Source of the DNA: Planctomycetota bacterium
GTDB taxonomy: Bacteria; Planctomycetota; UBA1135; UBA2386
Length of the DNA: 64,000 nucleotides
Direction: 5' to 3'
Assembly (NCBI GenBank): GCA_965228735.1
Contig: OZ245838.1
Coordinates: 2,240,001-2,304,000, forward strand
A model generated the notes under the pieces. That model was not told the origin of the DNA, searched no databases, and saw only the letters and a list, made by a program, of their open reading frames with translations. This document shows positions 13,334 to 63,998 of this stretch, piece by piece (positions within the stretch are counted from its first letter, which is position 1; every line of letters starts with the position of its first letter). The position numbers and the translations under genes are program-made.

Positions 13334-16300
13334 CTAGGAGTCGAACATCAGCGTTCCCGTCGTCGTCGTCATCACGTTCTCCACCGGGTCCATGATGACG
13401 AACTGGATGTCGAGCTCGAGACCCGGCGGCACGGCCGTCGCATCGAAGTCGAGGCGGCCCTCACCGCGACTGCCGAGGACCCCGACGAACGGCGATCCCC
13501 CACCGAACGAGTCGAGCAGGAGCGTCTTCGTGCCGACCTGGTTGACGCTGTGTCCGAGGTAGGCGCGCAGGCCCCACTGCTGGCCGGCTCGATCGGCACC
13601 GGCATCGAGCACGATCGTCATCGCGCCGCCCGGGCCGTCATTGACCCGCACGTCGACGTCACCCGCGGTGCTCGGCGTGAACGGTTGCAGGTTCGGCGAA
13701 CCCATCGAGCGGATCGGGAACGGGCGCCAGTCGTGACCGACATCGTGATCGAGCCCGTCGGCGTTGCGCGCGAGGCTCTGGGAGATGTCAGGCGCGAGCG
13801 CCGCCGTGCGGAAGTCGTCGGGATGCGACGGCAGACGCGGATCGTTGTGTTCCACCGGCGAGTTCGCTCGCGTCGCGCGGAGCAGGTCCACGAGTCGGCC
13901 GGCCGCGTCGTAGAGGCCGATACTGAACTCGGCCGCGCCGAGCGTCAGGTCGTTGCTGCGACGGTAGCTGACGCCGCTCGGCGTCTCCGCCGGCGGCTGG
14001 GCCGTGTTGCCGATGACGAGCAGCTCACCGGTCGTCAACACCTCGGTGTCGGGGAACGGCTGCAGGGTCTGGATCGGCGCGCCCTGCGCGGCCGAGTACC
14101 GCAAGGTCCAGCCCTGCAGGTTGACCGGCGACTGGTCGCGACTCAGCAACTCGACGTAGGTCGCGCCGCCACGAAACACCTCGTTGAGCTGCACCCTGGC
14201 GGTGGTGAACAGCGCCGCCCGAGTGTTGCGCGCCCCGGCCGACTGACTCTCGAGGCCGAGTGACCGGCCGTAGTCGGCGGTCCAGTCCGTCGCCGAGTTC
14301 GAGTCGAGTCCCCAGATGCGTTCGATTCGTCGCGACGTGAAGAACGGTCCGCTCTGGTGGTTGTGCACCGCGCCGCGGAACTTGCCGCCGAGGCTGCCTT
14401 CGTAGTAGCCACCTCCAACCGCAGCGGAGCGCACCTCGTCGATGACGTAGCCGTTGGGCGCCACGAGCCCGACGCAGAAGTCCGTCGCCGCCGTGGATGC
14501 GCCGGTCAGGACGGGGAACACCCGCACGGACAGCGGGATCTCGGCGAAGCCCTGCGTCGCGAGCTGCGTCCGCAGCACGATCGTCTCCTGCGGCTGGATC
14601 ACCACGCCCGCGAGCGCCATCGAGTTGCCTCCCGTATGACCGATCGGGAAGAGGTCACGCCACCGCACTCGCCAGTCCGTGAGGTCGATCGGCACGGGCG
14701 AGAAGTTGGTGAGCTCCACGGCACCGGGCACCGTCGGGGGAATCGCGGAGACCACCTCCGTGATCATCAACTTGTCGGCGACCGGGCCAACCGGGATCTT
14801 CGCGGACATGATCGAACCCGAGTCCGGGCACTGGCCGTCCGAGAACGGGCTGCCGATCAGCGCGTCCATAACGCCGTCCAGGTTCTTGTCCCCGATGTCG
14901 AGTCCAAAGCCGAAGCCATCACTCGACGGCGACCTTTGCGTGAACCACAGCAGCGTACCGTCGCGCCCCGACCGCAGTTCGATACGACCGGTCACGGCCG
15001 TGGTGCCGGGACCAGCGATGAGGAAGTCCGTTCCGCCATCGTCGTTCACGTCTCCCGCGCCAACAACTCGGAAACCGAAACGCCCGCCGAAGAACGTACC
15101 GCTCCACGTCGCAACGGGCTGCAGCCCGACGATCTGGCCGGTCAGGTACCGGAACACGCGCACGTAGCCGTTCCCGACGTGCCCGGCGTGCGAACCGTTC
15201 TCCGGCGCACCAACGGCAATGCTGCCGACCTTGCTGCCGTAGATGCTCGGAACGACCGCAACCGAGCGTCCGAAGTAGTCGTACGGCCCATCGCCCTGGG
15301 CACCGACCAGCGCGGTGCCGAACGACCCTTCGTAGATCGCCACGCGGCCGCAACGAGTTGCACTGGAGCTGCTGAACAACGGCGCCCCGACGGCGACTTC
15401 GGGCCGGCCGTCACCATTGAGGTCGAACCCGCCACTGACCGCATCACCGAACCGCTCGCCGGGTTGCAGACCCGGGATCCCGAAGAACACGCCCGCGGAT
15501 GCACCGGAGATCAGGTCGACGCGCCCCCGGTTCGACGCGTGATCGGGACTGCCGACCACGAGGTCCGGCGTGCCGTCGTTGTCGAGGTCACCGGCCGCAC
15601 CGACAGACGTCCCGAACCCCGGGCCCGAGCCGAAGCTGCCGCCATCGATGAAGTGCACGACCGCGCCCGTCATGCCGTCGAGAACATGCACCGCACCGTT
15701 GCCCTGCCCGGGCGCGCCGCTCGCGACCTCGGGGATCGAATCGCCGTTCAGGTCGCCGATCCGCGCCAACGCGTAGCCGATGTTGGCGTTGATCGTCGTT
15801 CCGCTGAACGTCCACAACGCCGAGCCGTCGGCCCCCGAACGGCAATACACCTGGCCCCGGCCGCCGTTGAATCCGGGCCGGCCGATCAGCGATTCCTCGT
15901 AGCCGTCACCGTCGATGTCCGGCAGGGCAACCACTGCATGACCGGTCCATTCGCTCGCCGAGTTGCACGGCGGCGCGGTCACGGTCGTGCTCACGACGTT
16001 GGAAGCACCGCCGGCGAGCACGTCGTTGAGCACCCGGAAGTTCAGCTGCCCGACGGGAAAGTTCGATCCCACGTCCATCGAACCGATGAGCTTGGTCTTG
16101 CTCGTCACCGTCGTCGGCATCGTCACCCATGCGCCGTTCTGCAGGTACTGCAGCTTGGAGCCCTGCGTGCCCTTGTAGGGCTCGAACGACCCGATGAAGA
16201 AACCGGTTCCCGTGACGTGCACGTCGATGGCGCCGGAGCCGGTGAATACCGTCGTCGGCACGTGACTCGTGATCGACGGCCCGGTCGGAATCCCGTACTT

Positions 16301-17111: not shown

Positions 17112-17117
17112 GCCGAC

Positions 17118-17735
17118 TCAGCTGCCGTCGAGCTCGTCGAAGATCGAGCCGGGCAACCGGGCACGCAACTTGCCGACCGCGCGCTGATAGCGCCGCGCGA
17201 TCGCCGCGGCGGTCGAATCGAGCTGCACGGCGATCGCCGCCGGGCTCAGCTGCTCGATGCCACGCAGCAGGATGACCTCGCGATCGGCGTCGTCGAGGCC
17301 ATCGAGCGCTTCCCGGACGCGATCCCATCGTTCGCGACGGACCGCGGCGGTGATCACTCCGCTCGTCTCCGCCGGCAGCTCGTCGAGACGATCGAAGGCC
17401 GTCATCGCGCTGGCTCGGCCCGCCCCGCTGCGGGCGTGCGCGCGCGCGAGCGAGAGCACCTTGTTCACGATCGTCGTGCTGAGGAAGCGCAGCAGCACGG
17501 GCGTGTAGCGGCCCGAACGGCTCGGCAGCTCCGCGAGCCGCGGCAGGGCCACGAGCCACGCCTCGCTCACGAGGTCGTGCGGGTCGCAGCTGTTCCGCAA
17601 CAGCGGCCCGAGGCGATACGACGCGTGCGCGAGCAGGAGCGGCGACAACCTGGCCACGACCCAGTCGAGGCTCTCGCGATTGCCGGCGATCGCGCCGCGA
17701 ACGTGCATCGTCGTCAGGGTCTCGGCATCGGTCAC
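17118..17735 (-). CDS. ECF RNA polymerase sigma factor (kinase-associated type)
   Basis: Sigma2 LRNSCDPHDLVSEAWL, sigma4 LDGLDDADREVILLRGIEQLSPAAIA. Overlaps the kinase stop by 4 nt. Confidence 0.9.
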   Translation of the reverse strand: MTDAETLTTMHVRGAIAGNRESLDWVVARLSPLLLAHASYRLGPLLRNSCDPHDLVSEAWLVALPRLAELPSRSGRYTPVLLRFLSTTIVNKVLSLARAHARSGAGRASAMTAFDRLDELPAETSGVITAAVRRERWDRVREALDGLDDADREVILLRGIEQLSPAAIAVQLDSTAAAIARRYQRAVGKLRARLPGSIFDELDGS

Positions 17736-20700
17736 AACGCACCTCCGGCGATGTAGATGCCGTCATAGTAGCGCTGCCCGTCCCGTTCGAACGACTGCAC
17801 CTTGGTGAGGCGGCCACGGTGCTCGGCAAGCAGGGCGTCGACCTCGGCGCGGGTCCTCGCGAGGAAATGGCGCCGGTCGACCGCGTCGTCGCGCACGAAC
17901 AGACAATGGCACCGCAGATCACCGGCGCGATCGATCTCGATCGGCTGCCAACCCCCGGACGCGCGGCGCTCGACCTCGGCCTCCGTCAGGTCGTAACCGG
18001 CCCGCCAGTCGCGGGTCTCCCACAACAGGTTGCCGACCCCGACGAACGTGACCCGGCGACCCTCGCCTTCGCCGTCCACGACGAAGTCGGTGTAGCGCTG
18101 GCTGCCGCGCACGCGCTCGGAGAGGTCCGCGGTCGTCTGCCAGCGCCAACGCGGTGTGTGCACGCCGAGACTCTCCACGACAACCGTCGCACTGCGTTGC
18201 TCACCGGCGTTGCGCCAGATCTCGATGTCGACGGCGCGACCACCGCGCGCGAACTCGACGAGCGCGGGCGACGACAGCGGCTGATCACACTGCCAGCGCC
18301 AGGACCGTCGCATGAGTCCCATGTTTCGCACGAGCGTCGCGCTGAACCGCAGGGGCTCCGGGCTGTCGATCGCGAGATCGAGAATGCGCCACTCCTCCGC
18401 GACGAGCACGTCCAACTCGGCCCTGCTTGCCTCCGTGACCCAGCGACTCTCGAACGCGCCAGGATGATCGTCGGCATCCCGCAACGGAAACTCGTCGCGC
18501 GCGACCACCTGCTGGAACAGCTCCCGGAACTCGGCGTCCTCGTGCAGCCATGAGAACTGCTTGGCGCGCAACAGGTCGCTGTCGGTGTAGCCGTTCGTCA
18601 GCGCGGCTCGCAGCACGAGCGCGGCGTGCCGCCGACAGGCGTCCGCGGCGTTGCTCGCCGTCCTGCCGTGCCGCGCGAGAATCGCGAGCGCAGCAGCGGG
18701 CTCCCACTCGTGCGCCACGGTCTCGGGTGCCATCGCGAGCAGCTCTTCCGCGACCCGGGCTACGGCAGCAGCGCTCGCGACCGTCGCTGCGTGCAGGCAC
18801 GACTGAAAGTTCTTGCGCAGCCGGTTGCCGTAGTCCGGTCGCGGGTCGCTCGTCATCACCGCGCGCTGGTGGAACACGGCCTCGGCCCCGGCCCGCAACG
18901 ACCCGGTGTGATCGCCCGCGGCGTGGAGGTAGCCGCAGAGGTTGTTCAGGTTGGACCCGACGCGACTGCGATAAGCCGAGATGCTCGGATAGTCCGCCGC
19001 CAGCCCCCGGAACGCGGACACCGCCGATCGCGCAAGCGGCACGGCTTCCGCGGCGCCACTCAGTCGCCGGGTCGTGATTGCGAGATTGGTCAGGATGCCG
19101 GCGCGCAGCTGGCGACCGTGCGCATCGACCCGCTGCGCCAACGCGCGATCGATGTAGGCGAGCGCCTTCGTCGAACAATCGCGCTGGCGTTCGTGTTTCC
19201 CTTGCTCCATGTAACAGGTGCCGAGGAAGTTGTAGGCGTTCGCCGCGAACGTGAGGAACTGGCGCTCATCGACCGCCGCCAGCAGTGCTTCGATGAGTTC
19301 GACGGCGCGCTCCTCGTGCGTGATGGCTTCCTCGACTCGGCCGCGAGCCTGCAGCAAAGACGCCCGGCGCTGCTCGCTGTCCGCCAGCAAGTAGCGCAGC
19401 CCCGCCACCTCCGGCGACGCCTCACACCAACGTTCGAGGTCGACTGCGCTGGCTTCGAGTACCTGAACGGCGGCATCGAGCTCACCACGCGCTTCGAGCA
19501 CCGACGACAGCCAGCTCCGATTGCGGGCGAGCTCCTGTTTGAGCTTGTGCGCCCGGGGCTGCTCCCGCACGAGTTCCTCGAGCGTGGCGATCGCGGCACG
19601 ACCTTCGCCTTCCGCGCGCTCGTGGTCCCCGAGTCGATACACGACGTGACCCAGCACCCCGCGCGTGATCGCGACCCGCTCACGCAGAACGGGATCACGC
19701 GGTCGATCCTGCAGGAGCGAGCGCAGCAGACCGAGGGCATCATCGAGAACGTCGCGCCGCACGGGCTGTGCTTCTGGAACGTCTTCGAGAGCGTCCGCGC
19801 CGACCCGGTCGAGCATTCGGTCGATGGCCGTCATCGCGAGTGCGAGGCGGCCCTCGGCCTCGTTGCGGTACACGACGCTGGCGAACAGGCCGACGACGAG
19901 CGCGAGCACGACGCCGGCGAGCGCCATCGCGAGGGCACGGTTGCGCCGCACCCACTTGAACAGGCGGGCCAACGCCCCGACGTGGTAGGCCCGCACGACG
20001 CGAATCTCGAGGTAGGCGCGCAGGTCGGCCGCGAGCTCGCCGACGTCCGCGTACCGATCCTCGGGCCGATGGGCCATCGCGCGCTCGCAGATCGCGACGA
20101 GTTCGGGCGGCAGACCGGGCTTCACCACGGACAGCAACGGCGGCGGCCCGGCAACCACGCGGGCGAGGATCGAACGCGACGACGTCTGCGTCCCGTCCCC
20201 GGCGTACGGCACCCGCCCGCCGAGCAGGTGGTAGAGCATCGCGCCGATGGCGTAGACGTCGACCCGCGAGCCGACGCGGTCGACCTCGCCGCGCGCCTGC
20301 TCGGGCGCCATGTAGGCCGGCGTGCCGATGACGTCGCCCTCCATGGTCAGGAGCGGGGAATCGACTTCGGAGTCCGCCAGGTCGCGCCGCGTCGACCGAA
20401 CTCCGGCCGCCTGGTCGCGGCAGTCGGCCGGGCCTTCCGGTGCGATCCGGAGATCACGCCGGTCGGGCTGATCGAGCACCCGAGCGAGGCCCCAATCCAT
20501 GACGAACGTCTCGCCGAAACGACCGACCATCACGTTCGCGGGCTTGAGATCGCGATGCACCACGTTCTTGCTGTGCGCGAACGCCACGGCGTCGCAGACG
20601 CGCAGCAGCGCGTCGAGCGCGCGGTTCACCGTCCACGTCGGATCGCCGTTCCGCGCCGCCGCGATGACCTCCTTGAAGCTCTGCCCTTCGACGAGCGCCA

Positions 20701-21163
20701 TCGTGAAGTAGGCGGTGCCGTCGGCCCGCACGCCGACCTCGTGCACGGGCACGACCGCCGGGTGACTGAGCTGCGCCGTCACCTGCGCCTCCTCGAGCAG
20801 CCGCAGGGAATCGCCCGAGTCGGTGCCCGGCCGCGAGACCTTCATCGCGAGCATGCGCCGCAGCTGCCGGTCCCACACGCGGTAGACCCGCCCCATGCCG
20901 CCACGTCCGATCTCGCCGCGCTGTTCGTAGCGCTCCGACAGTCCCTCGTCGGTGGTGATCTCGGTCGTCACGCCGGGCGCGCTCGATGCGGCGCCACCCT
21001 CCCCCTGCAGCCGCTCGTACTCGGCCGCGATCACGCCCTCGTACCCGGCGAACCGCGCTTGATACTCGGCCAGCGAGCGCGCCGCTCCGCGGGCGCGATC
21101 CGCGGCATAGGACTGCAGGAACGCGAGCGCCACGCCGTCCGCATCACGATCCCGGGGGTTCAT
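17732..21163 (-). CDS. Membrane Ser/Thr protein kinase with TPR region and C-terminal tandem repeats
   Basis: GRGGMGRV, LAMK, HRDLKPANV, MDWGLA, GTPAYMAPEQ, DVYAIG; TM LAMALAGVVLALVVGLFASVVY; TPR-like helices. Confidence 0.93.
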   Translation of the reverse strand: MNPRDRDADGVALAFLQSYAADRARGAARSLAEYQARFAGYEGVIAAEYERLQGEGGAASSAPGVTTEITTDEGLSERYEQRGEIGRGGMGRVYRVWDRQLRRMLAMKVSRPGTDSGDSLRLLEEAQVTAQLSHPAVVPVHEVGVRADGTAYFTMALVEGQSFKEVIAAARNGDPTWTVNRALDALLRVCDAVAFAHSKNVVHRDLKPANVMVGRFGETFVMDWGLARVLDQPDRRDLRIAPEGPADCRDQAAGVRSTRRDLADSEVDSPLLTMEGDVIGTPAYMAPEQARGEVDRVGSRVDVYAIGAMLYHLLGGRVPYAGDGTQTSSRSILARVVAGPPPLLSVVKPGLPPELVAICERAMAHRPEDRYADVGELAADLRAYLEIRVVRAYHVGALARLFKWVRRNRALAMALAGVVLALVVGLFASVVYRNEAEGRLALAMTAIDRMLDRVGADALEDVPEAQPVRRDVLDDALGLLRSLLQDRPRDPVLRERVAITRGVLGHVVYRLGDHERAEGEGRAAIATLEELVREQPRAHKLKQELARNRSWLSSVLEARGELDAAVQVLEASAVDLERWCEASPEVAGLRYLLADSEQRRASLLQARGRVEEAITHEERAVELIEALLAAVDERQFLTFAANAYNFLGTCYMEQGKHERQRDCSTKALAYIDRALAQRVDAHGRQLRAGILTNLAITTRRLSGAAEAVPLARSAVSAFRGLAADYPSISAYRSRVGSNLNNLCGYLHAAGDHTGSLRAGAEAVFHQRAVMTSDPRPDYGNRLRKNFQSCLHAATVASAAAVARVAEELLAMAPETVAHEWEPAAALAILARHGRTASNAADACRRHAALVLRAALTNGYTDSDLLRAKQFSWLHEDAEFRELFQQVVARDEFPLRDADDHPGAFESRWVTEASRAELDVLVAEEWRILDLAIDSPEPLRFSATLVRNMGLMRRSWRWQCDQPLSSPALVEFARGGRAVDIEIWRNAGEQRSATVVVESLGVHTPRWRWQTTADLSERVRGSQRYTDFVVDGEGEGRRVTFVGVGNLLWETRDWRAGYDLTEAEVERRASGGWQPIEIDRAGDLRCHCLFVRDDAVDRRHFLARTRAEVDALLAEHRGRLTKVQSFERDGQRYYDGIYIAGGAL

Positions 21164-21175
21164 CGCGGTTCCAAT

Positions 21176-25422: not shown

Positions 25423-27948
25423 TCAGATGTCGCCGATCATGCCGACGACCGCGTTGCTCGCGGCGAGTCCGTAGTTGTTGATCCCGGGCACGAACGCGCC
25501 GCCCTGGGCGTAGAGCATCACACCGACGAACGACGGATCCGCGGGGATGTCCAGGGCGAACACCGGACCGGGGACCGGCAACGGCAGCAGCACGGTCGCA
25601 GCGCCACCGGTGTGCTGGACGCACCCGGGCGCATTGGCACCGAGCGAGCCGATGCCAAACGTAACGTCGAGCTGCAGGAAGCCGAACACCGCCGCCGCCG
25701 GGATGCCGGTCAGGTCGAGCTCCCAGGTCGTGCACGACACCGGTCGGTTGCGCGCCGCGAGCATGGGGCCGTTGCAGCTCGAGCCGGACTCCGCGCTCGT
25801 CGCGCGGATCGCGCCGGTCGCCGGCAGGCTCGAGAGGAAGAGCAGCGTGAACTGGGCGTCCGCGGCATTGCCACTCGCGTCGAACGTCTTGACGATGACC
25901 CGCGATCCGTTGGCGCCGGGGATCGAGGCGAGGCCGTCGACGTTCGCATACTCGGCACCACCGCCGAAGGCCGTCGCCTGCACCACGAACCGGTCCGAGT
26001 ACGACAGATCCGGGAACGAGACCCTGTAGGTCCCCGTCCCCAGGCGCTCGATGAACTCGGAGTTCGCCGGTCCGACCGTGCCGTTGCTGTCGGTGTAGTC
26101 GACCGCCGGCGAGTAGCTGCTCGCCAACTCGTGCGCGGCCCAGACGTGACCGCCGGCGCCATCGTGCTCGGAGATCGGCGCCGCGGTCTCGTTGTAGCTC
26201 ATCACGAAGCGGCCATCGACGAGGATGCCGTTGCTGTTCGTCGTGCGCACTCCGACCACCATGTCGGTGCCGTTCGACGACCAGCCCGTGATCTTGGCCC
26301 GCAGGTTGTTGTTGGCATACGCCGTGACCTGCACGTGGCCGAGCTCGGTCCCCGCGGGCTCGAGCCCGGGCAGCGTGACGGCATACGTGCCGATCGCGAC
26401 CCGCGTGACCGACGGACTGCCGCGGTCGGCGTTCCACGAGTAGTCGGTCGGCGGCGTGTAGCTCGGGTTCGCCGGCGAGCTGGCCCAGACGTAGGCCTCG
26501 CGATCGCGGTTGTTGCCGCCGCGACGGAACCGCACGAAGAACCGTTCGTCATCGGCCGGTCCACCGTTCGGTGCGAACAGCTCGACCGTCGCCACGACGT
26601 CGTCGTTCTGCTGGTTCCAGCCGTTCACGACGGCCGTGTGATTGCCATCGAACGCCGACGCGTGCACGATCCCGTGGCTCGAACCCACCCCGTGGAAGCG
26701 CACGAAGAAGCGGTTCTGCTGCCCGGGGTCGCGGTTGACCGTGACCTCCTCGTCGACCGTCGAGTATCGCCAGCCGGGCGGCACCGAGAACGCCGGACCC
26801 TGGCCCGCAGGCGAGATGAACGCCCACGCCATGACGGGCCTGGCGGCCGGCCGGTTGGTCAGGAACTGCAGTGTGAAGCGCGAGTCCGCCGGGTTGCCGG
26901 CCGCGTCGAACGTGTCGACGAGAACAGTCGAGCCGCCGCATGCGGAATGCGTCCACCCACCGATCGTCGCGAACGTCGGCTGCGAGCCGTACGCCGTGAC
27001 CTGCGCGGTCGCGCTCCACACGGGAACGACGCTCGGCAGCTCGACGCGATACGCGCCGACGCCGAGCCGTTCGATCTTCTGCGCGTCCTGCGGCCCGTAG
27101 CGGCCGTTGCTGAACGTGTAGCGCGCATCCGGCTCGTAGCTCGGCGACAGCTCGTTGCCGGCCCAGACGTGGACGCCGGAACCATCGAGCTCCGAGATCG
27201 GCGCGACCGTCTCGTTGTAGCCGAGCACGAACTCGGCATCCGCGGGCGTGCCGGCCATGTCGTAGCACTGCACGCGCACGATCGCGTCGACGCCGTTGCT
27301 GCTCCAGCTGAGCACGTTCGCGCGGCGCGGGACGTCGCCGTAGGGCGCCACCTGCACGTGGCCGCGTTCGAAGCCGGTGGCGGCGAGCCCCGGCAGATCG
27401 ACCTCGTAGTCGCCGGGCCCCATCCGGACGATCGTCGGATCGGCGCGATTGCCGTTCCACGAGTACAGGTTCAGCGGCGTGTATGCCGGATTGGTCTCGT
27501 CGTTGGCCCACAGGTAGGCCTGCCGCAGCCCCGCGTCACCACCGCGCCGGAACGTGGCCGTGAACTTGCCGTCGTTCGCCCGACCACCCGCGGCATCGAA
27601 CAGTTCGATGACCGCGCGGACGTCGCCGCCCGAGTTGCTCCAGCTCTTCACGACCGCGGTGTGGTTGCCGTCGCACGCGCTCGCGAGCACGACGCCCGTC
27701 GACGGTGACATCCCTTCGAATACCACGGTGAAGCGGTTCTGCTGCGCCGGGTCACGGTCTACCGTGACCGCACCACCGCTCGTGGTGTACTGCCGCGCGG
27801 GATCGGGGGTGAACGATGCACCTTCCCCGACTGGATCGACGTAGGCCCACGCGACGTCCTGCGCGGACGCGGCGATGGCAGTGAGGGTCAGGGCGGCGAC
27901 AGACCGGGCGAGCAGGGACCGGCCGAACGAGATTCGGGAGCTGGGCAT
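25423..27948 (-). CDS. Secreted protein with six ~115 aa beta-rich repeats and the conserved C-terminal domain (paralog 1)
   Basis: Signal peptide ending ASA-Q; repeats with R.G.G.Y.V.LP and QVT(A/P)YG; C-terminus LYAQG...SNAVVGMIG. Confidence 0.85.
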   Translation of the reverse strand: MPSSRISFGRSLLARSVAALTLTAIAASAQDVAWAYVDPVGEGASFTPDPARQYTTSGGAVTVDRDPAQQNRFTVVFEGMSPSTGVVLASACDGNHTAVVKSWSNSGGDVRAVIELFDAAGGRANDGKFTATFRRGGDAGLRQAYLWANDETNPAYTPLNLYSWNGNRADPTIVRMGPGDYEVDLPGLAATGFERGHVQVAPYGDVPRRANVLSWSSNGVDAIVRVQCYDMAGTPADAEFVLGYNETVAPISELDGSGVHVWAGNELSPSYEPDARYTFSNGRYGPQDAQKIERLGVGAYRVELPSVVPVWSATAQVTAYGSQPTFATIGGWTHSACGGSTVLVDTFDAAGNPADSRFTLQFLTNRPAARPVMAWAFISPAGQGPAFSVPPGWRYSTVDEEVTVNRDPGQQNRFFVRFHGVGSSHGIVHASAFDGNHTAVVNGWNQQNDDVVATVELFAPNGGPADDERFFVRFRRGGNNRDREAYVWASSPANPSYTPPTDYSWNADRGSPSVTRVAIGTYAVTLPGLEPAGTELGHVQVTAYANNNLRAKITGWSSNGTDMVVGVRTTNSNGILVDGRFVMSYNETAAPISEHDGAGGHVWAAHELASSYSPAVDYTDSNGTVGPANSEFIERLGTGTYRVSFPDLSYSDRFVVQATAFGGGAEYANVDGLASIPGANGSRVIVKTFDASGNAADAQFTLLFLSSLPATGAIRATSAESGSSCNGPMLAARNRPVSCTTWELDLTGIPAAAVFGFLQLDVTFGIGSLGANAPGCVQHTGGAATVLLPLPVPGPVFALDIPADPSFVGVMLYAQGGAFVPGINNYGLAASNAVVGMIGDI

Positions 27949-34687: not shown

Positions 34688-35113
34688 TCACCAGAGCGAG
34701 ATCTGTCGCCCTTGTTGCGCGGGCCGGACGATCCAGGCGCCTGTGTTCGGCTCATGGTGCAGCGCGAACGCGTCGACGTGGAATCGAAACGGCAAGAGAG
34801 CCGATGGAACCGCAAGCGTCGCGGTCGACACGATCGGCACGATCACATCTGGCGACTGAAACAACAAACACGCCGGCGGCACCAGCGGGTAGCCGACGCG
34901 TTGCCAGTTCGTACTGAGCGCCAGCCACTGGCCATGGGCCAAGAACGGGTTGTAGCTGAACAGCAGTTCGCAGGTGCCCGGCAGGTAGCCGACCCCCAGC
35001 ACTGCCCCGCCATTGCATGGCGTGCCGCTCGGAGTCACGAAGATCCCCTGCACGCTGCACTGCGCGGTGAGCGAGCCAACGAACAGAGCCGCGAGTGAAG
35101 CGGTGCGAAGCAT
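34688..35113 (-). CDS. Small secreted protein resembling a stand-alone copy of the shared C-terminal domain
   Basis: MLRTASLAALFVGSLTA-Q signal; GTPCNG...PACLL...ATLAVP motifs. Confidence 0.6.
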   Translation of the reverse strand: MLRTASLAALFVGSLTAQCSVQGIFVTPSGTPCNGGAVLGVGYLPGTCELLFSYNPFLAHGQWLALSTNWQRVGYPLVPPACLLFQSPDVIVPIVSTATLAVPSALLPFRFHVDAFALHHEPNTGAWIVRPAQQGRQISLW

Positions 35114-41611: not shown

Positions 41612-42222
41612 GACTCGAGCGCTCCGCTGCGCAACGCCTTCAACTGCAGCGCGAGCTTGGGCAGCGCGCGCTGGAACCGCATCCGCGCCGCGTCCTCGCT
41701 GAGCCCCATGCGCCGACCGATCTCGGCGAAGTCCAGCTCGTGCCATTGGCGCAGCATGAGGATCTTGCGGTCTTCGGGTTCGAGGAGTTCGAGCGCGAGG
41801 CGCACCCACGCGTCCTGCTCGTTCCTGGCCACCGCCGAACCCGGCTGGGTCACCGCCTTGCCGCCGCCATCGAGATCGAGCACCGAATCGGGCGGCAGCT
41901 CGCGCTCGCGGGCCGGCGCGCGCTTCTGCGCCGAGTGGAAGTCGTGCGCGTCGCGCAGGTGATTCTCGACGATGCGGGCAACGAGCGCGCGGAACCGCGC
42001 CCGGTCGTTCGTCAGGAAGCGCGGCACGTAGCCGAGCAGGCCGATGACCGCGTCCTGGACGTAGTCCATCGTTTCACCGCGCGCGCGCAGGAGAGCCCCG
42101 AGCCGGCCGTGCACGTAGTCACGAATCCAGGGCAGATCACGGGCCACCAGCGCGTCGATCGCGGCGCGATCGCCGGCGTGCCACTTCTGCAACAGGACTC
42201 GGGTGTCTTCGCTCTCGGCCAT
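41608..42222 (-). CDS. ECF sigma factor (kinase-associated type)
   Basis: LRARGETMDYVQDA; LELLEPEDRKILMLRQWHELDFAEIG...AARMRFQRAL. Confidence 0.92.
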   Translation of the reverse strand: MAESEDTRVLLQKWHAGDRAAIDALVARDLPWIRDYVHGRLGALLRARGETMDYVQDAVIGLLGYVPRFLTNDRARFRALVARIVENHLRDAHDFHSAQKRAPARERELPPDSVLDLDGGGKAVTQPGSAVARNEQDAWVRLALELLEPEDRKILMLRQWHELDFAEIGRRMGLSEDAARMRFQRALPKLALQLKALRSGALES

Positions 42223-42326: not shown

Positions 42327-43385
42327 TCAGTTGTGATCGAAGAGCGTCACGACGCCCCAGTTGCGGTAGGCGTTGCCCGTCGGGGCGGTGGCGCTGGACT
42401 GGTTCCAGAGGATCGACATCGCGGGATCGATGCCGATCTGCATCTGATCACCGTTGCTGACCACGACGCCACCGGGCGCGAAGAAGTCGAAGCAGACGCA
42501 CTGGCTCGAGATCGTGAGATCGTTGAACAGGCGGTCGTTCGGGATCGGCACGGAGAACGTGTAGTTGCCGCTCGCGTTCGTGGTCGCCGCGACCGAGAAC
42601 AGGTTCACGAGCGAGACCTGCCCCATGCAGAGCGGGTTGATGGCGGGAAAGAACGGCTGCATCGCGTACGGCGCCTGCAGCGGCTGACCGAGGTTGATGA
42701 ACCAACCGGCCAACTGGCTCGCCGGCGCGTCGCGGAGATCGCAGTACCAGGTCTGTCCGACTCGCGTCGGCCGACTGTCCAGCTCGGGGATCTCGTTCCC
42801 GGAGTGGGCGCAACCGTCGGGCCCCTGGATGTTCGGCGACAGGAACTGGCAACGGTCGAGCGGGTAGCTGAACGAGGCGCCGCCGTTGTTGTTGGCGATG
42901 ACGCGCCACTCGACGAGCAGGTTCTCGCTCGGGTCGAACGTGTACGGCGTCGTGAGCGTCAGCCAGATGTACGGATCCTCAGGGTTGGGGTTCAGCACGT
43001 TGTTGAGGTCGGGCATCGTGAACAACGCCGGCCCGAATACCGTCGTCGGCGAACCGAGGTAGTTGGCGTCGTAGTTCGTCAGCATCGAATCGGCGTCTTC
43101 CTGCGTCTGGCCCATCCGGACCTCGAGCTGCAGGGACCTGCCGTACGCGATCTGGGTGCCGTTCGCCCGGAAGCCGATCCGGGTGATCTGGCGACCGGCC
43201 GGGACGGTGATGTCCCACGACTCGTAGAGCGCCATCATGCGACTCACGCCGGACGAGTACGGGAACCAGTTCTGCGACGAGAAGCCGTCGGGAACGGCTG
43301 CATGGTCACTCGGGAAGGTCGCGGTGCCCTGCGCGAGCAGGCTGGTGGTGAACACGAGGAGAGCGATTGGACGGATGGATTTCAT
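42327..43385 (-). CDS. Secreted protein with the shared domain followed by a short tail
   Basis: MKSIRPIALLVFTTSLLA-Q signal; GPDGC...VPIPND...ISSQ...VSNG...IG, then about 30 extra residues. Confidence 0.75.
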   Translation of the reverse strand: MKSIRPIALLVFTTSLLAQGTATFPSDHAAVPDGFSSQNWFPYSSGVSRMMALYESWDITVPAGRQITRIGFRANGTQIAYGRSLQLEVRMGQTQEDADSMLTNYDANYLGSPTTVFGPALFTMPDLNNVLNPNPEDPYIWLTLTTPYTFDPSENLLVEWRVIANNNGGASFSYPLDRCQFLSPNIQGPDGCAHSGNEIPELDSRPTRVGQTWYCDLRDAPASQLAGWFINLGQPLQAPYAMQPFFPAINPLCMGQVSLVNLFSVAATTNASGNYTFSVPIPNDRLFNDLTISSQCVCFDFFAPGGVVVSNGDQMQIGIDPAMSILWNQSSATAPTGNAYRNWGVVTLFDHN

Positions 43386-46299: not shown

Positions 46300-48810
46300 C
46301 TACCGGGCAGAGCGGGCACAACGGAACCCGCGGTTGTAGTTGGCGTAGCTGTCCTCGGGACCACCGCGCATGATCATCGTGAGCGTGCTGCGCCGCGGTT
46401 CGGCGGTCCAATCCTCACCGGCGACGAGCCGGGTTCCGAAGCGTGCCACGAGCCGATCCCCGACGCGCTCGGGCGCGAGGCTCTCGCACCACTCGGACAC
46501 GTTGCCGAGCAGGTGATGGATGCCGGTCGCCGTGGCAGCCTCCGGCGCCGACCGCACCGCGACCGCCCGCTCGAAGTAGCGATCGAGCTTCTCGGTCATG
46601 GTCGTCGTCGAGACCACGGACTGGCGCGTGTTGCCGCGATAGCTGCCGTCATGATCCGGCCACGGGAACTCGCGGCCCTCCTCGCCGCGCGCCGCGAGCA
46701 TCCACTCGGCGTGGCTCGGCAACCGCTTGCCGACCCACTCGGCGTAGTCCCGGGCGTCCACCCAGCTCACGAACGCGACCGGCAGCAGGTCCTCGGGCGA
46801 ACCCGCGACGACCCGCGCCAAGTGCGGCGGTTGGCGCTTCTGCGGATGCGCCGCCAGGAACGCCCGGTAGTCCGCGTTCGACACTTCGTAGCGGTCGATC
46901 CAGAACGGCCGCACGGTGAGCACCTTGCCGTTGATGCCGGACATGTTCGCGGCGGCGTCCCGGTAGGCAATCTCGCCGCGCTCGATCCGCACCATGTCGT
47001 CGGTGCCGGTCAACTCACGGATCGTCGACTGGATCCTGAGCTCGGGGGCCATCCGCCGAGTCTGGCGCGTGAACTCGCGAACGCCGAGCGTCGCCGTCGC
47101 GACGCGGATTCGAACGAGCCCGATCGGCAGCTCGTGCCGCTCGACCGGCAACGCCCCGAGCGGCACGAACTCGCCGGGCTGCCCCGTGATCGGATCGAGC
47201 AGCGCGTACGACGCGTCGCCCTGGACCGCGGCCCCAGCGTCATCGAGCAGCCGCACCGTCAACCGCGGCGCGAACGGATTCTCGTCCAGCGCCGCCACGT
47301 GCTCCGGCTCCTCCCGGAACAGGATCGCCAGGTTCCCGCGGATGCCGCGCGCCTGCAGGACGAGCGCGTCGTCACCTTCGGCGAGGCCGCGCGCGAGCGA
47401 GTCGGCTGCGGAGCGCTCCCACTCGCGCCGCAGCTCCTGGACTCGCGCCTCGATCTCGCGCACCAGCGCCGCGACCGCCGGGCCGGCTGCGTCTTCCCGC
47501 AGGATCTCGGCATCCCGCCGCAACCGCAGGAGATCCTGCAGGTCCGCGCGATCGAACCTATCGAGCGTCGCCCGACACCGCGTCACCACGTCATCGCGAG
47601 CCGTGCGCCTTGCCTCGACCGTCGACCACCACCAACCGCCGGTCGCGAACAGGATCGCGCCGAGACCGATGGCAGCGCCCCGGGCGTGACGCACGGCGAA
47701 CCGTCGGGTCCGCTGCCAGACGGTCGGCGGCTTGGCGTCGATCGCTTCGAAGCGCAGGAAACGCCGCAGGTCGGCGCCGAGCGCGGCCGCGTTGCGGTAC
47801 CGATCTTCGGGATCGCGTTGCATCGCCTTGCGTACGATCAGCTCGAGGTCACGCGGGATCGACGGATTCAGACGCCGCACGGGCCGCGCCTCGGAAGTGC
47901 GGATGCGGTGCCAGATCTCCGCCGGTGAGTCGCCCTTGAACGGCTGTTCGAGCGTGAGGCACTCGTAAAGCACGACGCCGAGCGAGTAGACGTCCGTGCG
48001 CGCGTCGACGGACGCCTGGGCCGCCGTCGTCTGCTCCGGGCTCATGTAGTGCACGGTGCCCGCGAACGTGCCGGTCATGGTCGCGTTCCCGAGCAGCTCG
48101 TCACGCGCCAGCCCGAAGTCGACGATGTGAAGCTCCCGATGCTCGCGATCCACGAGCAGGTTCTGCGGCTTGATGTCACGGTGCACGATCCCCGCGGCAT
48201 GCGCGTGCTGCAACGCGTCCGCCGCATCGGCACACAGGGTCGCGACGATCCGAACATGTTCGGGCTCCCCGGGCCGCGGCAGGAGCGCCGCCGCCGAGCG
48301 CGCGCGCTGCAGCTTGATCTCCTTGCCGAGATCGTGCCCCTCGATGAGATCCATCGAGAACCAGTTGGTCGGTCCTTCGTGCCCCGTCGCGTGGATGCCG
48401 ACGATGTTGGGGTGATGCAACCGCGCGATGCGCTGCGGCTCGGAGCGAAACCGGTTCAACTGCCCCGGCGTCGTCGTGATCCCGGCTTCGAGCACCTTGA
48501 CGGCCACGTCGCGCTGCAGCTTCACGTCGCGCGCCCGGAACACCGTCCCGGTCGAGCCGCGCCCGATCACTTCGACGAGCACGTGACCGGCGAGCTCGCG
48601 GCCGGCTGGCGGCGGCTCCGGATCCTCGACGCGCGGTCGCCCGGGCTCGAGTTCGCCGCTCTCGAGCTCGACGGCGAGCAGCGACATCACCTCGTGATAC
48701 AGCGCCTCGTCGTCGCCACACGCGGCGCGGACGAACGCCTCGCGCTCGTTCTCCGGTCGCTCCCGAGCTTCCCCGTGGATCTCGCTGACCCGCTCCCAGC
48801 GATCCGTCAT
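46300..48810 (-). CDS. Ser/Thr kinase fused to a formylglycine-generating-enzyme (SUMF1)-fold domain
   Basis: GRGSTGTV, VAVK, HRDIKPQNL, VDFGLA, YMSPEQ; TM; FWIDRYEVSNADY, RLPSHAEW, HLLGNVSEW, GFRCA. ATG overlaps the sigma stop. Confidence 0.92.
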   Translation of the reverse strand: MTDRWERVSEIHGEARERPENEREAFVRAACGDDEALYHEVMSLLAVELESGELEPGRPRVEDPEPPPAGRELAGHVLVEVIGRGSTGTVFRARDVKLQRDVAVKVLEAGITTTPGQLNRFRSEPQRIARLHHPNIVGIHATGHEGPTNWFSMDLIEGHDLGKEIKLQRARSAAALLPRPGEPEHVRIVATLCADAADALQHAHAAGIVHRDIKPQNLLVDREHRELHIVDFGLARDELLGNATMTGTFAGTVHYMSPEQTTAAQASVDARTDVYSLGVVLYECLTLEQPFKGDSPAEIWHRIRTSEARPVRRLNPSIPRDLELIVRKAMQRDPEDRYRNAAALGADLRRFLRFEAIDAKPPTVWQRTRRFAVRHARGAAIGLGAILFATGGWWWSTVEARRTARDDVVTRCRATLDRFDRADLQDLLRLRRDAEILREDAAGPAVAALVREIEARVQELRREWERSAADSLARGLAEGDDALVLQARGIRGNLAILFREEPEHVAALDENPFAPRLTVRLLDDAGAAVQGDASYALLDPITGQPGEFVPLGALPVERHELPIGLVRIRVATATLGVREFTRQTRRMAPELRIQSTIRELTGTDDMVRIERGEIAYRDAAANMSGINGKVLTVRPFWIDRYEVSNADYRAFLAAHPQKRQPPHLARVVAGSPEDLLPVAFVSWVDARDYAEWVGKRLPSHAEWMLAARGEEGREFPWPDHDGSYRGNTRQSVVSTTTMTEKLDRYFERAVAVRSAPEAATATGIHHLLGNVSEWCESLAPERVGDRLVARFGTRLVAGEDWTAEPRRSTLTMIMRGGPEDSYANYNRGFRCARSAR

Positions 48811-49409
48811 TCGGCGAGTTCGCGTTTGAACCAGGCCTTCGCCGTCGTCCACTTCCGACGCGCGGTCCGCGGCGCGAGCCCGAGGATCGCGGCCGCTTCT
48901 TCGACCGACTGCCCGAGGAAGTACCGCAGCTCGACGATGCGGGCGCCGTCCGGATCCCGGTCCTTGTACCGCTCGATCAGGTCGTCGAGTTCGATGACAT
49001 CGATCGCCGCCTCCTGCCACTGGCTCGCGAGCGCCGCGTCGAGCACCTCCGAGATCGCGACCGTCGCGCCTCTCGGCGAGCGCTTCTGCGCTGCCTTCGC
49101 GCGCGCGTGGTCCGTCAGGATCGTGCGCATCGCCGTCGCGGCGAGCGCCATGAAGTCGGCACGCTGACCGGATTCGACTCCCGACCCGCGGCACAGCTTC
49201 AGGAACGCCTCGTTCACGAGCGCCGTCGGCTGCAAGGTATGCGACGCGGCTTGCCGCGCCATCTCGCGGCGCGCGAGCGCATGCAACTCGGCATAGAGCA
49301 GCGGCAGGATTTCCTGCCAGGCCGTCTTGTCCCCTGCCCGCAGTCGCTGCAACGCCGCGTCCACTGCCGGGTCCGAACCGGACCCGTTCTCTACAGCCTT
49401 CTCCACCAT
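48807..49409 (-). CDS. ECF sigma factor, TIGR02999/ECF43-like
   Basis: LYAELHALA...HTLQPTALVNEAFLKL, MRTILTDHAR, IVELRYFLG, WTTAKAWF. Confidence 0.93.
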   Translation of the reverse strand: MVEKAVENGSGSDPAVDAALQRLRAGDKTAWQEILPLLYAELHALARREMARQAASHTLQPTALVNEAFLKLCRGSGVESGQRADFMALAATAMRTILTDHARAKAAQKRSPRGATVAISEVLDAALASQWQEAAIDVIELDDLIERYKDRDPDGARIVELRYFLGQSVEEAAAILGLAPRTARRKWTTAKAWFKRELAE

Positions 49410-52895: not shown

Positions 52896-52918
52896 CGACC
52901 GCGAATCGTATCGCGCCG

Positions 52919-55778: not shown

Positions 55779-55790
55779 GCCCGATGACCG

Positions 55791-58286
55791 TCACGGCAAG
55801 ATGCGTTCATGCAACGCCGGGGTGAAACCAGGCGTCGCGCCCAGGGTCAGGCCCTGGACGTAGAGGTCGAGACCGACGAGGCCCGGCAGCGTCGGGATCG
55901 CCAACGTGGACTCGGCGGTACCGCTCGGCGCCGGCAGGTTCACGAGCGGCAGCGTCGCGGTCGTCGTGATGTCGAGCTGCCAGGTGCCGCGGATACCGGC
56001 GACGGCCAGCGGGCTCGCGCGCGGTCCGAACGCCACGATCGGGATGCAGAGCGTGGGTGAAGCCGCAAACCCGGGCTCGTGCGCGAATCGCACCTGCAGC
56101 TGCCCTCCCGGCGTCGGGCGGGCGAGCGTCGTCGCCGAGCGCAGGTGGTTCATCGGATCCGACGCCAGCATGCCGAAGGCGCCGAGGACGTCGGGATCAC
56201 CGTCACCGTCGATGTCCGCCGCGCCGGCGCCGAACAATTCGACCGACCCGAGCCGGGCGGCGGTCTCGTCGACGAAGGAGCCGTTGCCCGTGTTCATCCA
56301 CAGCTGCGCCCGGCCGCCGAGTTGCAGCAGATCCGTGTCGCCGTCGTCGTCCCAGTCGGCGAACCACGGCTTCATCAGCGAGGAGGTCCCCTGCGCAGTG
56401 TGGATGACCTGCGACTGCACGAACATGCCGCCCTGATTGAGCAGCACCCGGCCTGAGCCGTGCGTCCACGCGAACACGTCGGCGTCGCCGTCGTCATCGA
56501 CGTCGACGAGCTTCATCTTGTCGAGATGACCCCACAGGAACGGCGCCGGAATCTCGCAGGCGTTGCCGAGCGAGAAGCTGCCGTTGCCGTCGTTCTCCAT
56601 GAGCGCGACGCAGTAGCCGGCCGCGCTGCCCGGCGCGAACAGCAGGTCCGGATCCTGGTCGCCGTCCCAGTCCCAGAGCTGCGGGGTGCCCACGATCTCG
56701 GTCCACACCATCGCGGGCGGCGCGAAGACGCCGCTGCCGAGGTTGCGCAGCACGCGGACCGCCGGTCCCGAGTAGGTCACGGCCACGAGATCGTCGAGAC
56801 CGTCGCCGTCGAGGTCGGCCGCAGCGGCCAGGTAACCACGCGCCAGCGATTGCGGCGGCAACGCGGTGAACACGAAGCCCGGGTCCAGGCGGAAGACCTG
56901 CAGGCCGCCGGGGTCGTTCTCGTTCATCACGACGACATCGCGGTCGCCGTCCCCATCGACGTCGGCAGCACGCACGGACGAGCGCAGGAACGGCACCGGC
57001 AGAACGACAGTCGACCACGCGCCGGCGCCGCGATTCCGGCGCGCGTGCACCTGGTAGAACGCCTCCTGCAGCAGGTCGATGCGCCCATCGAGATCGAGGT
57101 CCGCGGCATCTTCCGTCCCGCCGCCGCGGTTCGGCACGAACGGACGGCGCTGGAGCATCGGGTCGAACAGCATGCGGTCGAGCCGACCGAACGCGACCGC
57201 GAGGCCCGAGTCGTCGAAGTCGAAGAGCACGTCGGCGCGGCCGTCCTCGTCGACGTCACCGACATCGAAGCTGCGGACCCCTGCGATCACCTCGGTCGTG
57301 AAGGTCGGTCCGTGGTTGCGCAGGATGCGAAGCTCACCGTCGACCACGTGCACGACGTCGAGGAACTGGTTGCCGTCGACATCGGCGAGCCGCAGGCGAG
57401 CGCCCGCTCGCACAGCGCCCGTGCCGATCGGCACACCCTGGAACCCGAGCGCGGTGTTCCACAACAGATCGACCGCACCGTCCGAGCGTTGCTGGACGAG
57501 ATCACCGTCGCCGTCACCATCGAGGTCGGCCGCGACGACCTGCTGGGCCGGACCGCCGACAACGACACCCGCGGAGAACGTGCCGGCCTGATTCGTCAGC
57601 ACCAGGACGCTGCCGCCGGCGTCGACGGCCACGAGGTCCGGATCGCCATCGCCGTCGATGTCGGCGAGTTCCGGCGCCAACAGCGGCGTGGCCGGCAACG
57701 CGGCCGGCTGGGCCTGGAAGCCGAACGCGCCATCGTGCAGGAACAGCGTCGGGGCCTGAGCCTGGCCCGCGCCATCCGCGCGCGTCACGATCAGATCGCG
57801 GTCGGCGTCACCATCGACGTCTCCGGTTGCGACTGCCGCCAACGCACTGCCTGCCAGCGTCGCCGCGCCGGCGAACTGCGGCATGCCGCCGGTGTTCTGG
57901 AACAACTCGAAGCGCGCGTCCGACCCGGTCGAGCCCGCCAGGATGACCAGCACGTCCAGGTCGACGTCGCCGTCGAGATCCGCGAGCGCGATCTCGAGTC
58001 GGGGCGGCAAGCCCGGGGCGCCCTGGTAGGTCGCCAGCGTCACCTGCTGCCAGGACCCGGCCACGCGGCGGAAGAGCACCACCGTCGCGCTGCCGAACAA
58101 GGGAGTCGCGTGCGCCGCGACACAGTCGAGGTCGCCGTCTCCGTCGACGTCACCGCACGCATACGCCTCGAACGTGCCGGCGAGGTGGACCGCAGGGTAG
58201 CGATGCCCATCAGCCTGGAGTTGCCGGGTCTGCGCCGGCGCGAGCGCGGAGAGCGCGAGAACGGATACGAACAGCAGGCTGCGCAA
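55791..58286 (-). CDS. Secreted FG-GAP/VCBS repeat protein with the conserved C-terminal domain
   Basis: About 14 D(V/L/I/W)D.DG..D repeats; signal ending APA-Q; C-terminus LAIP...LVGLDLYVQG. TTG 58286 has a GAGG RBS (alternative ATG 58379). Confidence 0.88.
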   Translation of the reverse strand: MRSLLFVSVLALSALAPAQTRQLQADGHRYPAVHLAGTFEAYACGDVDGDGDLDCVAAHATPLFGSATVVLFRRVAGSWQQVTLATYQGAPGLPPRLEIALADLDGDVDLDVLVILAGSTGSDARFELFQNTGGMPQFAGAATLAGSALAAVATGDVDGDADRDLIVTRADGAGQAQAPTLFLHDGAFGFQAQPAALPATPLLAPELADIDGDGDPDLVAVDAGGSVLVLTNQAGTFSAGVVVGGPAQQVVAADLDGDGDGDLVQQRSDGAVDLLWNTALGFQGVPIGTGAVRAGARLRLADVDGNQFLDVVHVVDGELRILRNHGPTFTTEVIAGVRSFDVGDVDEDGRADVLFDFDDSGLAVAFGRLDRMLFDPMLQRRPFVPNRGGGTEDAADLDLDGRIDLLQEAFYQVHARRNRGAGAWSTVVLPVPFLRSSVRAADVDGDGDRDVVVMNENDPGGLQVFRLDPGFVFTALPPQSLARGYLAAAADLDGDGLDDLVAVTYSGPAVRVLRNLGSGVFAPPAMVWTEIVGTPQLWDWDGDQDPDLLFAPGSAAGYCVALMENDGNGSFSLGNACEIPAPFLWGHLDKMKLVDVDDDGDADVFAWTHGSGRVLLNQGGMFVQSQVIHTAQGTSSLMKPWFADWDDDGDTDLLQLGGRAQLWMNTGNGSFVDETAARLGSVELFGAGAADIDGDGDPDVLGAFGMLASDPMNHLRSATTLARPTPGGQLQVRFAHEPGFAASPTLCIPIVAFGPRASPLAVAGIRGTWQLDITTTATLPLVNLPAPSGTAESTLAIPTLPGLVGLDLYVQGLTLGATPGFTPALHERILP

Positions 58287-59320: not shown

Positions 59321-59325
59321 CACCG

Positions 59326-62909: not shown

Positions 62910-62918
62910 GTCGCGGGC

Positions 62919-63998
62919 TCAGAACCCGACCTGAGCGCAGATCCCGTTCGTCAACGTGATGCCGACCGCGTTGCCGGGCGTCGGCCCGAACACGCCGCCC
63001 TGCAGATAGACCGGCACACCGTTCGCGGCGGCCGGCACGGCCCACGACCAGCGCATGTCGGTGTTGGTCGCGTTGCCGAGCAACACGCTCGTCAGCACGA
63101 GACCGAGGTCGAGGTGCGACTCACAGCCCGGGAGACCGAAGCCGTCGAGCGGCAGGCCGGTCGGCAGGCCCGCGAAGCCGAGCGACAGGAAGCCGCCGAT
63201 CGGCTGCGCGGGGTTGGGGCCGAGGTTGTCGATCACCGCGTCGATCGTCGTGTTGATCGCGGGCGGGCCGGAGAGCAGCAGTCGCGGCGCGGTCGCACCG
63301 GTGCCGGTCGTGTGCTGCGTGAGCGCCGACCAGTCGATGGGCTCGCCGAGCGGCTGGCCGCCGCCAGGGCTGAAGCCGACGATCGCCGGCCGCAATGGGT
63401 TGGGCACGAGCTGCGCACCGTAGGCGAAAGTCACGGCGCCGGACGGGAGCATCTCGACCTGAACGTCGCATCGCGAGTTCGCCGTTCCCGCGACCTGCAC
63501 GTCGCGCCAGGTGATCCGGACGCCGCCGTTCGGACTCGGATCCTCGATGCGGAACGCGGCCGGGCTGTAGTAAAGGAACTGGGCGTGGAAAGGCGCCAGC
63601 AGCGGCAGATGGTCGCGGAACGACGCCAGCGTGCCGTCGTGCCCATTGATGGCCGCGGCCGGATCCGTCGTCGCGCCGAGGAAGATCTTGCCGTTCGAGT
63701 TGATCGTGATCTCGGTGCAGCTGCCGCCCGGGAACGGCAGACCGCCCGGGAACGTGCTCGACGGCAGCGGGTAGACCAGCGACCCGTCGTTCCAGCCCGA
63801 TGCGCTCGACGACGTCGGCGTCATCGCGAGGAGGTTGGCGCCCGAGCTGACCGCGGTCGGGCCGTCGAACACCGGCCCGCCGGGACTCACGTCGTAGTGG
63901 CCTCCGTTCGCGTCCGGGACGAACGCCAGCGTCCATTGGGTGTCGCGCAGGTCGGCTGCGCTCGCGACGGAGGAGACCCGTTCGAAGACGGCGCGCGG
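62919..63998 (-). CDS. Probably secreted protein (5' end outside window) with nidogen-like region and the conserved C-terminal domain
   Basis: Frame open to the window edge; LPFPGG...ITINSNG...LAPFH motif; C-terminus GLPGC...VPVYLQG...TNG...VG. Confidence 0.75.
   Translation of the reverse strand, partial: PRAVFERVSSVASAADLRDTQWTLAFVPDANGGHYDVSPGGPVFDGPTAVSSGANLLAMTPTSSSASGWNDGSLVYPLPSSTFPGGLPFPGGSCTEITINSNGKIFLGATTDPAAAINGHDGTLASFRDHLPLLAPFHAQFLYYSPAAFRIEDPSPNGGVRITWRDVQVAGTANSRCDVQVEMLPSGAVTFAYGAQLVPNPLRPAIVGFSPGGGQPLGEPIDWSALTQHTTGTGATAPRLLLSGPPAINTTIDAVIDNLGPNPAQPIGGFLSLGFAGLPTGLPLDGFGLPGCESHLDLGLVLTSVLLGNATNTDMRWSWAVPAAANGVPVYLQGGVFGPTPGNAVGITLTNGICAQVGF

Follow-up and report, generated by a model that had tools for sequence, protein, structure and literature searches.

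We describe a protein domain that recurs in the secreted proteins of a Planctomycetota bacterium, and that came to light in a 64,000-nucleotide stretch of its genome (contig OZ245838.1 of assembly GCA_965228735.1, positions 2,240,001 to 2,304,000; this whole stretch is called the window below). The domain, which usually forms the C-terminus of its carrier, is a real, very large and uncatalogued family. Comparison of related proteins indicates that it is interchangeable with three kinds of known anchor or sorting tag. The reading that we favour, with a probability of roughly 0.55, is that it acts as a retained and position-independent surface tether on Sec-exported proteins, which would cross by type II secretion and be held non-covalently.

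A large family outside the domain libraries

A profile was built first from the seven clear copies of the window and then refined on the open reading frames (ORFs) of the genome. The seven-copy starting profile already matched 161 six-frame ORFs, almost all at ORF ends. At the threshold of E<=0.001, 320 of the 61,526 six-frame ORFs match, and the C-terminal bias that the preliminary description of the window had predicted is strong: the domain lies at most 5 amino acids (aa) from the stop in 293, is followed by a tail of 6-50 aa in 14 and lies farther from the end in 13. No ORF among these 320 holds two copies. Reversing all 61,526 ORFs gave no match, nor did 170-aa windows taken from the middle of called genes longer than 400 aa. 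When the last 170 aa of our own 5221 gene calls were searched, the domain was found to end 350 of them (~7%, about one in fifteen).

The carriers look exported. Signal peptides and lipoboxes were classified with a home-made, permissive heuristic that favours Gln, so that the contrast between carriers and non-carriers is what counts; by this measure a signal peptide with an Ala|Gln cleavage site is present in 238 of 316 carriers versus 602 of 4905 other genes, as a signal-peptide bias would have it. Lipoboxes are nearly absent, with 2 lipoboxes to 267 Ala|Gln signals among the 350 carriers versus 82 to 550 among 4176 non-carriers (same heuristic, Fisher p 2e-11), and 293 of 296 carriers are missing a membrane helix in the mature protein. 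The cargoes are poor in lysine (0.6%, against a comparison value of 2.5%) and diverse: BLAST sorts 328 carriers into 136 clusters, and the Pfam names include Kelch, FG-GAP, PKD, RCC1 and astacin. Eight carriers have CxxCH haem-binding motifs, which mature in the periplasm.

The family reaches well beyond this genome. In a survey of the phylum with at most 13 candidates scored per genome, 59 of the 301 Planctomycetota genomes searched had the domain, and its presence was mostly all-or-none by family (e.g. 7/7, 6/6 and 5/5 vs 0/15, 0/15 and 0/10). None of the 121 Verrucomicrobiota genomes searched had it. A library of 50%-identity clusters gave 23,531 matches at E<=0.001, and 147 of the best 150 were C-terminal. 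Shallow word-index searches returned 2, 19 and 4 matches, with no cultured carrier among them.

A held-out profile made from the 323 carriers of this genome that lie outside the window finds seven significant copies within it, with E values between 1e-9 and 1e-25 (calculated for 5221 genes). The strongest, on the forward strand at 38218-38595 (E 6.7e-26), ends the 458-aa protein 37225-38601, which has a signal peptide and a DUF4623-related cargo. The others are on the reverse strand. The copies at 30470-30847 (E 1.8e-23) and 25429-25803 (E 1.2e-21) end, respectively, an 840-aa repeat protein with a signal peptide (30464-32986) and its 841-aa paralog (25423-27948). Further copies end a gene call of 626 aa that starts beyond the window end (62925-63320, E 2.5e-19), the 425-aa protein 35610-36887, which has a signal peptide (35616-36005, E 1.7e-11), and the FG-GAP repeat protein that runs from 55791 to ~58286 and matches FG-GAP_3 (aligned part 55830-56132, E 1.4e-9). 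The seventh, at 42429-42815 (E 1.6e-18) within 42327-43385, is a predicted insertion that is discussed with the question of cleavage.

The preliminary description had placed these seven copies where the profile finds them, and the residue pattern it gave agrees with the columns conserved over the 350 carriers. A failure of the copies to align, which would have spoken against a common domain, is not what we saw, since all seven align significantly. Other parts needed correction. The domain measures ~125-135 aa and not 110-120 aa, the stop follows directly in most copies but not in 42327-43385, where a tail of ~30 aa intervenes, and the cargoes, described as unrelated, are not so in every case, since 25423 and 30464 are paralogs by sequence. 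Two divergent copies were also proposed, and neither is significant against the held-out profile. The first, 34688-35113 (reverse strand, 141 aa, a signal peptide plus one divergent domain; E 0.3), is rated a probable standalone member of the family because another standalone protein of this genome, itself a carrier, is 29% identical to it over 128 aa (pairwise E 2e-6). The second, at 13358-13705 (reverse strand), ends an astacin/FG-GAP/lamin-tail protein running from 13334 to ~17056; with a full-profile E of 0.04, a held-out E of 1.9 and weak pairwise matches only, this very divergent tail is doubtful as a member.

The copies have a median pairwise identity of 24%, and over the 350 carriers conservation is strongest at P96 (92%), Q109 (93%), G29 (82%) and G103 (79%). 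Next come G87 (71%), G67 (66%), G50 (63%), C68 (61%), P26 (59%), S125 (59%) and C11 (56%). C11 and C68 tend to be present together (both in 185 copies, neither in 33, one in 20), and this suggests a disulfide between them. The loop before C68 is 16% Pro, 15% Gly, 13% Leu and 6.5% Phe, is rich in Ala and has ~6% charged residues. Lysine makes up 0.3% of the residues of the domain, which is mildly acidic (median -4), and the terminal residue shows no conservation.

An AlphaFold2 model of the copy at 38218-38595, made with 43 copies, has a predicted local distance difference test score (pLDDT) of 95.9 and a predicted template modelling score (pTM) of 0.88. It contains 11 strands, any helix being shorter than 4 residues, and the predicted fold is an immunoglobulin (Ig)-like sandwich. 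Residues 13-128 of the model match Ig, fibronectin type III and macroglobulin domains at Z 7-9 (best 8.7-9.2), which is a generic level. Sequence libraries did not give the domain a name either, in line with what the preliminary description had supposed: neither Pfam nor NCBIfam names it in the 9 proteins of the window or the 43 copies of the domain that were searched, and the best match among the PDB sequences has an E of 0.18 and leaves it unnamed. The 30 matches in the ESM Atlas share no common Pfam family, and the neighbours there are unnamed Planctomycetota clusters. In the literature searched, mostly open-access articles apart from their supplements, we found the domain described nowhere, and the available part of the main text of 10.1101/817700 mentions neither secretion nor C-terminal domains.

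Exchange with known anchors

A hint of what the domain does comes from cargoes that are found with it in one genome and with another tag elsewhere. The preliminary description had compared the modular behaviour of the domain to that of the tails of the type IX secretion system (T9SS), of PEP-CTERM and of dockerins. The cargo of 37225-38601 was located at 23 loci. Eight of these end in a PEP-CTERM tag above the TIGR02595 cut-off, and the 15 remaining are of other types: the domain ends 7 of them, a PEP-like tail (VPTPG) ends 1, a type A tail of the T9SS (TIGR04183, E 5e-16) ends another, and 6 have other or open ends. Thus one and the same cargo bears a PEP-CTERM or T9SS tail in other phyla, the T9SS-tailed form of the DUF4623-related cargo being found in a Flavobacteriales genome. 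The domain begins at the very junction used by the tails that it replaces, and no copy of it was found in five genomes with PEP-CTERM, T9SS or other forms of this cargo.

A third exchange involves lipid anchors. In 1245429-1248407 of this genome (designated G000; its positions are on contig C1), the 580 aa that follow the domain share 57% identity over 585 aa with residues 307-889 of the lipoprotein 2655148-2657829, where the shared cargo comes after a lipobox and an Ig stalk. Likewise, in 4698122-4699630 an N-terminal copy is followed by the cargo that giant lipoproteins have at their C-terminus (36% identity to L175 over 314 aa). Because of these swaps with PEP-CTERM, the T9SS tail and a lipid anchor, the domain appears interchangeable with all three kinds of tag.

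Verrucomicrobial homologs of the 37225 cargo (L059, L062 and L064) end in another common tail of ~80 aa with a 'YRFFRAV'-like end. NCBIfam has no match for the tails of L059 and L062, and this tail is possibly another uncatalogued anchor.

The domain can also be set beside the known systems themselves. Like the type A T9SS tail (TIGR04183/PF18962), it would be an Ig-like beta-sandwich ending many unrelated Sec-exported proteins, a DUF4623-related one included. It differs from it in length (~130 aa versus the 67-108 aa given in the available text of PMC11285876), in having a Cys pair, in lacking the conserved terminal lysine strand and in occurring also in N-terminal, inserted and standalone positions, where a T9SS tail is strictly C-terminal and as a rule removed during export. 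The T9SS tail models of Pfam and NCBIfam match 0 of 43 members at E<=1, while a control tail (L065) is matched. The tails of PorZ and RgpB are seven-stranded Ig-like sandwiches, and our model is Ig-like as well, but its listed matches are generic Ig domains; T9SS tails are absent among the fold matches listed, although the model may resemble them. With PEP-CTERM/exosortase (TIGR02595), GlyGly-CTERM and MYXO-CTERM the domain shares the pattern of one lineage-specific tail on many lysine-poor exported proteins. Unlike these it would be soluble and folded, and it has neither a PEP motif nor the membrane helix and basic tail that go with one; the corresponding models match none of the 43 members and the predicted structure is all-beta. 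Dockerins and surface-layer homology (SLH) modules are retained anchoring modules, one per protein, and the domain resembles them in being a single module at either end that would be retained. Here too the 43 members have no match to a dockerin or SLH profile in Pfam or NCBIfam, and no cohesin-like partner was found (by a weak test). Dockerins of type I are built on a duplicated Ca-binding loop-helix repeat, whereas the all-beta Ig-like model contains no helix as long as 4 residues. Finally, the domain takes the place of the lipobox and Ig stalk of surface lipoproteins exported by type II secretion (such as pullulanase, in the accessible text of PMC11980579), whereas its carriers bear signals for signal peptidase I and hardly ever a lipobox. 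By analogy, then, the domain would act like a T9SS tail, a PEP-CTERM tag or a dockerin, yet it lacks the membership features of each that gave a clear answer.

Probable retention and a proposed route of export

The preliminary description had suggested an export or surface-attachment tag, and the position of the domain in its carriers helps to separate the two. In 13 carriers it lies more than 50 aa from the end, in about 9 of these directly after the signal peptide, and 11 proteins are clean combinations of a signal peptide and the domain. A further case is the inserted copy of 42327-43385. In this protein and its nine paralogs, a cargo profile of 185 positions ends at 146-155 ahead of the domain in 7 of 10, and at position 155 in 42327-43385 itself. 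In the model of the protein (pTM 0.86), jelly-roll matches span residues 1-334 (135-153 aligned) and Ig matches residues 173-302, and the ~30-aa tail after the domain (42330-42425, reverse strand) is predicted to complete the jelly-roll with its final strands (E305-311 and E329-333, pLDDT ~95). The domain is thus predicted to sit in a loop of the jelly-roll cargo, so that removing it would sever the cargo fold. When the tails of the inserted copies were compared alone with the cargo profile, 3 of 10 were among the top 13 of 1010, none significantly. All 12 non-terminal copies checked keep P96 and Q109; C11 is kept in 4 and C68 in 6. These N-terminal, standalone and inserted copies favour attachment and disfavour a cleaved C-terminal export signal, and the domain probably stays attached.

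This bears on the possibility that the domain is a cleaved, T9SS-like export signal for an unrecognised translocon and sortase, which we consider unlikely. The Ig-like fold, the extreme C-terminal bias and the direct swap with a T9SS tail are all in its favour, and so is the N-terminal Gln expected from the Q-rule of the Bacteroidetes (as given in the available text of PMC5837995). On the other side, SprA was found in 0 of 4 carrier genomes (91-94% complete) and PorV above cut-off in 0 of the same 4, where one weak match of 43 positions was seen in G119, while the Flavobacteriales control was positive for both. The C25 peptidase (PF01364), which is also a common cargo, has matches in 3 of the 4, with a split and weak one in G000 and none in G176. 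A crude barrel screen did not find an SprA-sized candidate, and a 1887-aa 'barrel' from it proved to be an RHS protein. The N-terminal, standalone and inserted copies suit cleavage poorly, and the final residue of the domain shows no conservation.

As to the Q-rule itself, Gln follows the predicted cleavage site in 272 of the 296 carriers with a signal, by the Gln-favouring heuristic. No PF05096 glutaminyl cyclase turned up in G000, where the other type of cyclase was not searched for. Two RHS-repeat proteins of ~1900 aa are encoded at 4739607-4745270 and 3787232-3792934.

The only route for folded proteins that we found in this genome is type II secretion. Besides 7 secretins it has GspD-E-F, G-H-I-J-like and K genes, and several of its gene clusters are of the type II or type IV pilus kind; a small PEP-CTERM system, with three tags and a single exosortase, is separate. 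There is precedent, in the portion of PMC11980579 available, for type II secretion delivering surface proteins that are C-terminally tagged or are lipoproteins. The features of a type II substrate are present, namely a Sec signal (by the heuristic), signs of periplasmic folding in the Cys pair and the CxxCH cargo, and secretins with Gsp-like genes, and these are necessary but not sufficient.

Under the tether reading, a carrier would be exported by Sec and cut by signal peptidase I at Ala|Gln, would fold in the periplasm with a C11-C68 disulfide, and would then pass the outer membrane in folded form through the type II secretion system. Attachment would be non-covalent and perhaps made by the uncharged, Pro/Gly/Leu/Phe-rich loop before C68, to outer-membrane lipid or a surface glycan, with P96 and Q109 as the structural core. 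The Sec step and the anchor swaps are read from sequence, the sandwich and the insertion come from modelling, and the later steps we infer.

Several observations weigh against this reading. The extreme C-terminal position of 293 of 320 copies is what one expects of a signal, and a T9SS tail can be extended without loss (in the available text of PMC11285876), so tails after the domain do not by themselves exclude a signal role. The surface location of the carriers is taken over from the anchors that the domain replaces. N-terminal copies are often without cysteines, so a disulfide-pinned loop is not universal; the domain being mildly acidic, binding to anionic lipid is not favoured; and fold matches as generic as those listed do not indicate a function. 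Secretins are not specific to carriers. The 1735-aa GspK-like pilin, which we tried as a partner, was present in 36 of 36 domain-positive but also in 14 of 36 domain-negative genomes among the 72 chosen for partner tests (36 of the 58 domain-positive relatives and 36 without a match, which are kin and not independent), and no tail was seen on the FG-GAP proteins that were examined in five of the negatives with this pilin.

A stronger version of the tether reading is doubtful. In it the domain would be the portable tag of a surface-display system not yet described, and the uncleaved Ig module would not only anchor folded proteins on the outer membrane but also direct them into a dedicated type II machine, perhaps that to which the 1735-aa GspK-like pilin belongs. 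That pilin is encoded at 1399119-1414788 (L077), a pilin cluster with a LamG-bearing pilin and PilM-like, TPR and FHA genes that is found in 50 of the 72 genomes. Elsewhere, at 6775394-6784599 (L080), a TPR-bearing secretin is clustered with TPR proteins and ExbB/ExbD-like genes, and 6053867-6057370 (L078) encodes a possible PilY1-like adhesin of 1167 aa, which is pilin-like at its N-terminus and has no match in Pfam.

Candidate partners and neighbouring genes

If the domain stays on its carriers, it could also work as a dockerin-like module that docks on a scaffold. The best candidate for a scaffold is the tandem array of giant lipoproteins near pyrB (590-1310 aa each, with a lipobox, a Big_5 Ig stalk and a glycine-rich body) at 2689303-2703361 (L068). 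It sits between pyrB and genes for prepilin peptidase, OmpA, a fusA-like protein and pilT-pilB-pilC, in an arrangement that is syntenic in several families, and further giant lipoproteins are encoded at 2418873-2422367, 2655148-2660505 and 5166246-5169569. Docking would fit one copy per protein, the free position of the domain, the syntenic locus and the co-occurrence of the giant Big_5 lipoproteins with the domain, which is 29/36 in positive vs 2/36 in negative genomes with a single query and 32/36 vs 5/36 with a profile made from positive genomes. This co-occurrence comes from kin that are not independent, and the profile has no match in four domain-positive genomes and strong matches in one negative (G054). 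Moreover, the giant lipoproteins share cargo with the carriers, and therefore look like a parallel form of display and not like a receptor. A self-repeat screen for a cohesin-like array found nothing, although it is a weak test. Taken together, docking seems improbable, and neither the GspK-like pilin nor the giant lipoproteins are a strict partner, kinship inflating both counts. Other candidates did no better. A second subfamily of giant lipoproteins is in only 13 of the 72 genomes, a five-Ig protein at 2047839 appears to be a lipoprotein peptidase, and the neighbours of the standalone copies show no shared partner.

There are two further explanations, and we regard both as very unlikely. In one, the domain is a self-assembling coat resembling a surface layer (S-layer), which displays the cargoes and uses standalone copies as filler subunits. 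S-layers built from Ig-like domains exist, ~7% of the genes carry the domain and 11 copies stand alone. The median pairwise identity is only 24%, though, and few conserved positions are available for a shared lattice interface. The standalone copies, moreover, diverge from one another and lie scattered, and no one locus stands out as the source of a main subunit. Homodimer prediction gave a score of 0.00 in two runs, which weighs neither way. In the other, the domain is a plain accessory binding module, like a carbohydrate-binding module, for an external substrate or in the periplasm and with no role in sorting. Its free position would allow this, and the model has a weak fold likeness to CBM56 and to the lipid-binding GM2-activator/NPC2 (Z 7.8; Foldseek E 8e-3). 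Such a module is harder to reconcile with 136 cargo clusters, with copies that are never in tandem and exclude other anchors, and with an all-or-none presence by family.

Pairs of an ECF-sigma-like gene (for extracytoplasmic function) and a Ser/Thr kinase gene lie in the window at 17118-21163, 38690-42222 and 46300-49409, and two of the pairs adjoin carriers or the doubtful carrier. Across the whole genome, a carrier lies next to 22 of the 68 Ser/Thr kinase genes, vs 10.5% of other genes, and because of this excess the carriers may be targets or ligands of such ECF-sigma/Ser/Thr kinase modules. At the start of the window, a run of four genes occupies 1017-12053 (reverse strand). Judged by motif, two of its proteins are dynamin-like or GTPase-like; it also encodes a probable lipoprotein and a kinase-like protein of 1620 aa that carries Ig-like repeats.

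With a single profile of the domain, the probable surface proteome could be marked out in many uncultured families of the Planctomycetota. If the domain is a retained outer-membrane tether, it would amount to a sortase-free way of displaying proteins on a diderm cell. How type II systems choose their substrates is a long-standing question, and a domain that also directed type II secretion would provide a portable handle on that choice and a possible display tag. If the stronger version of the reading is true, the domain would be a type II secretion signal that can be recognised in sequence, is active at either end of a protein or inside it, and serves ~7% of the genes of this bacterium.

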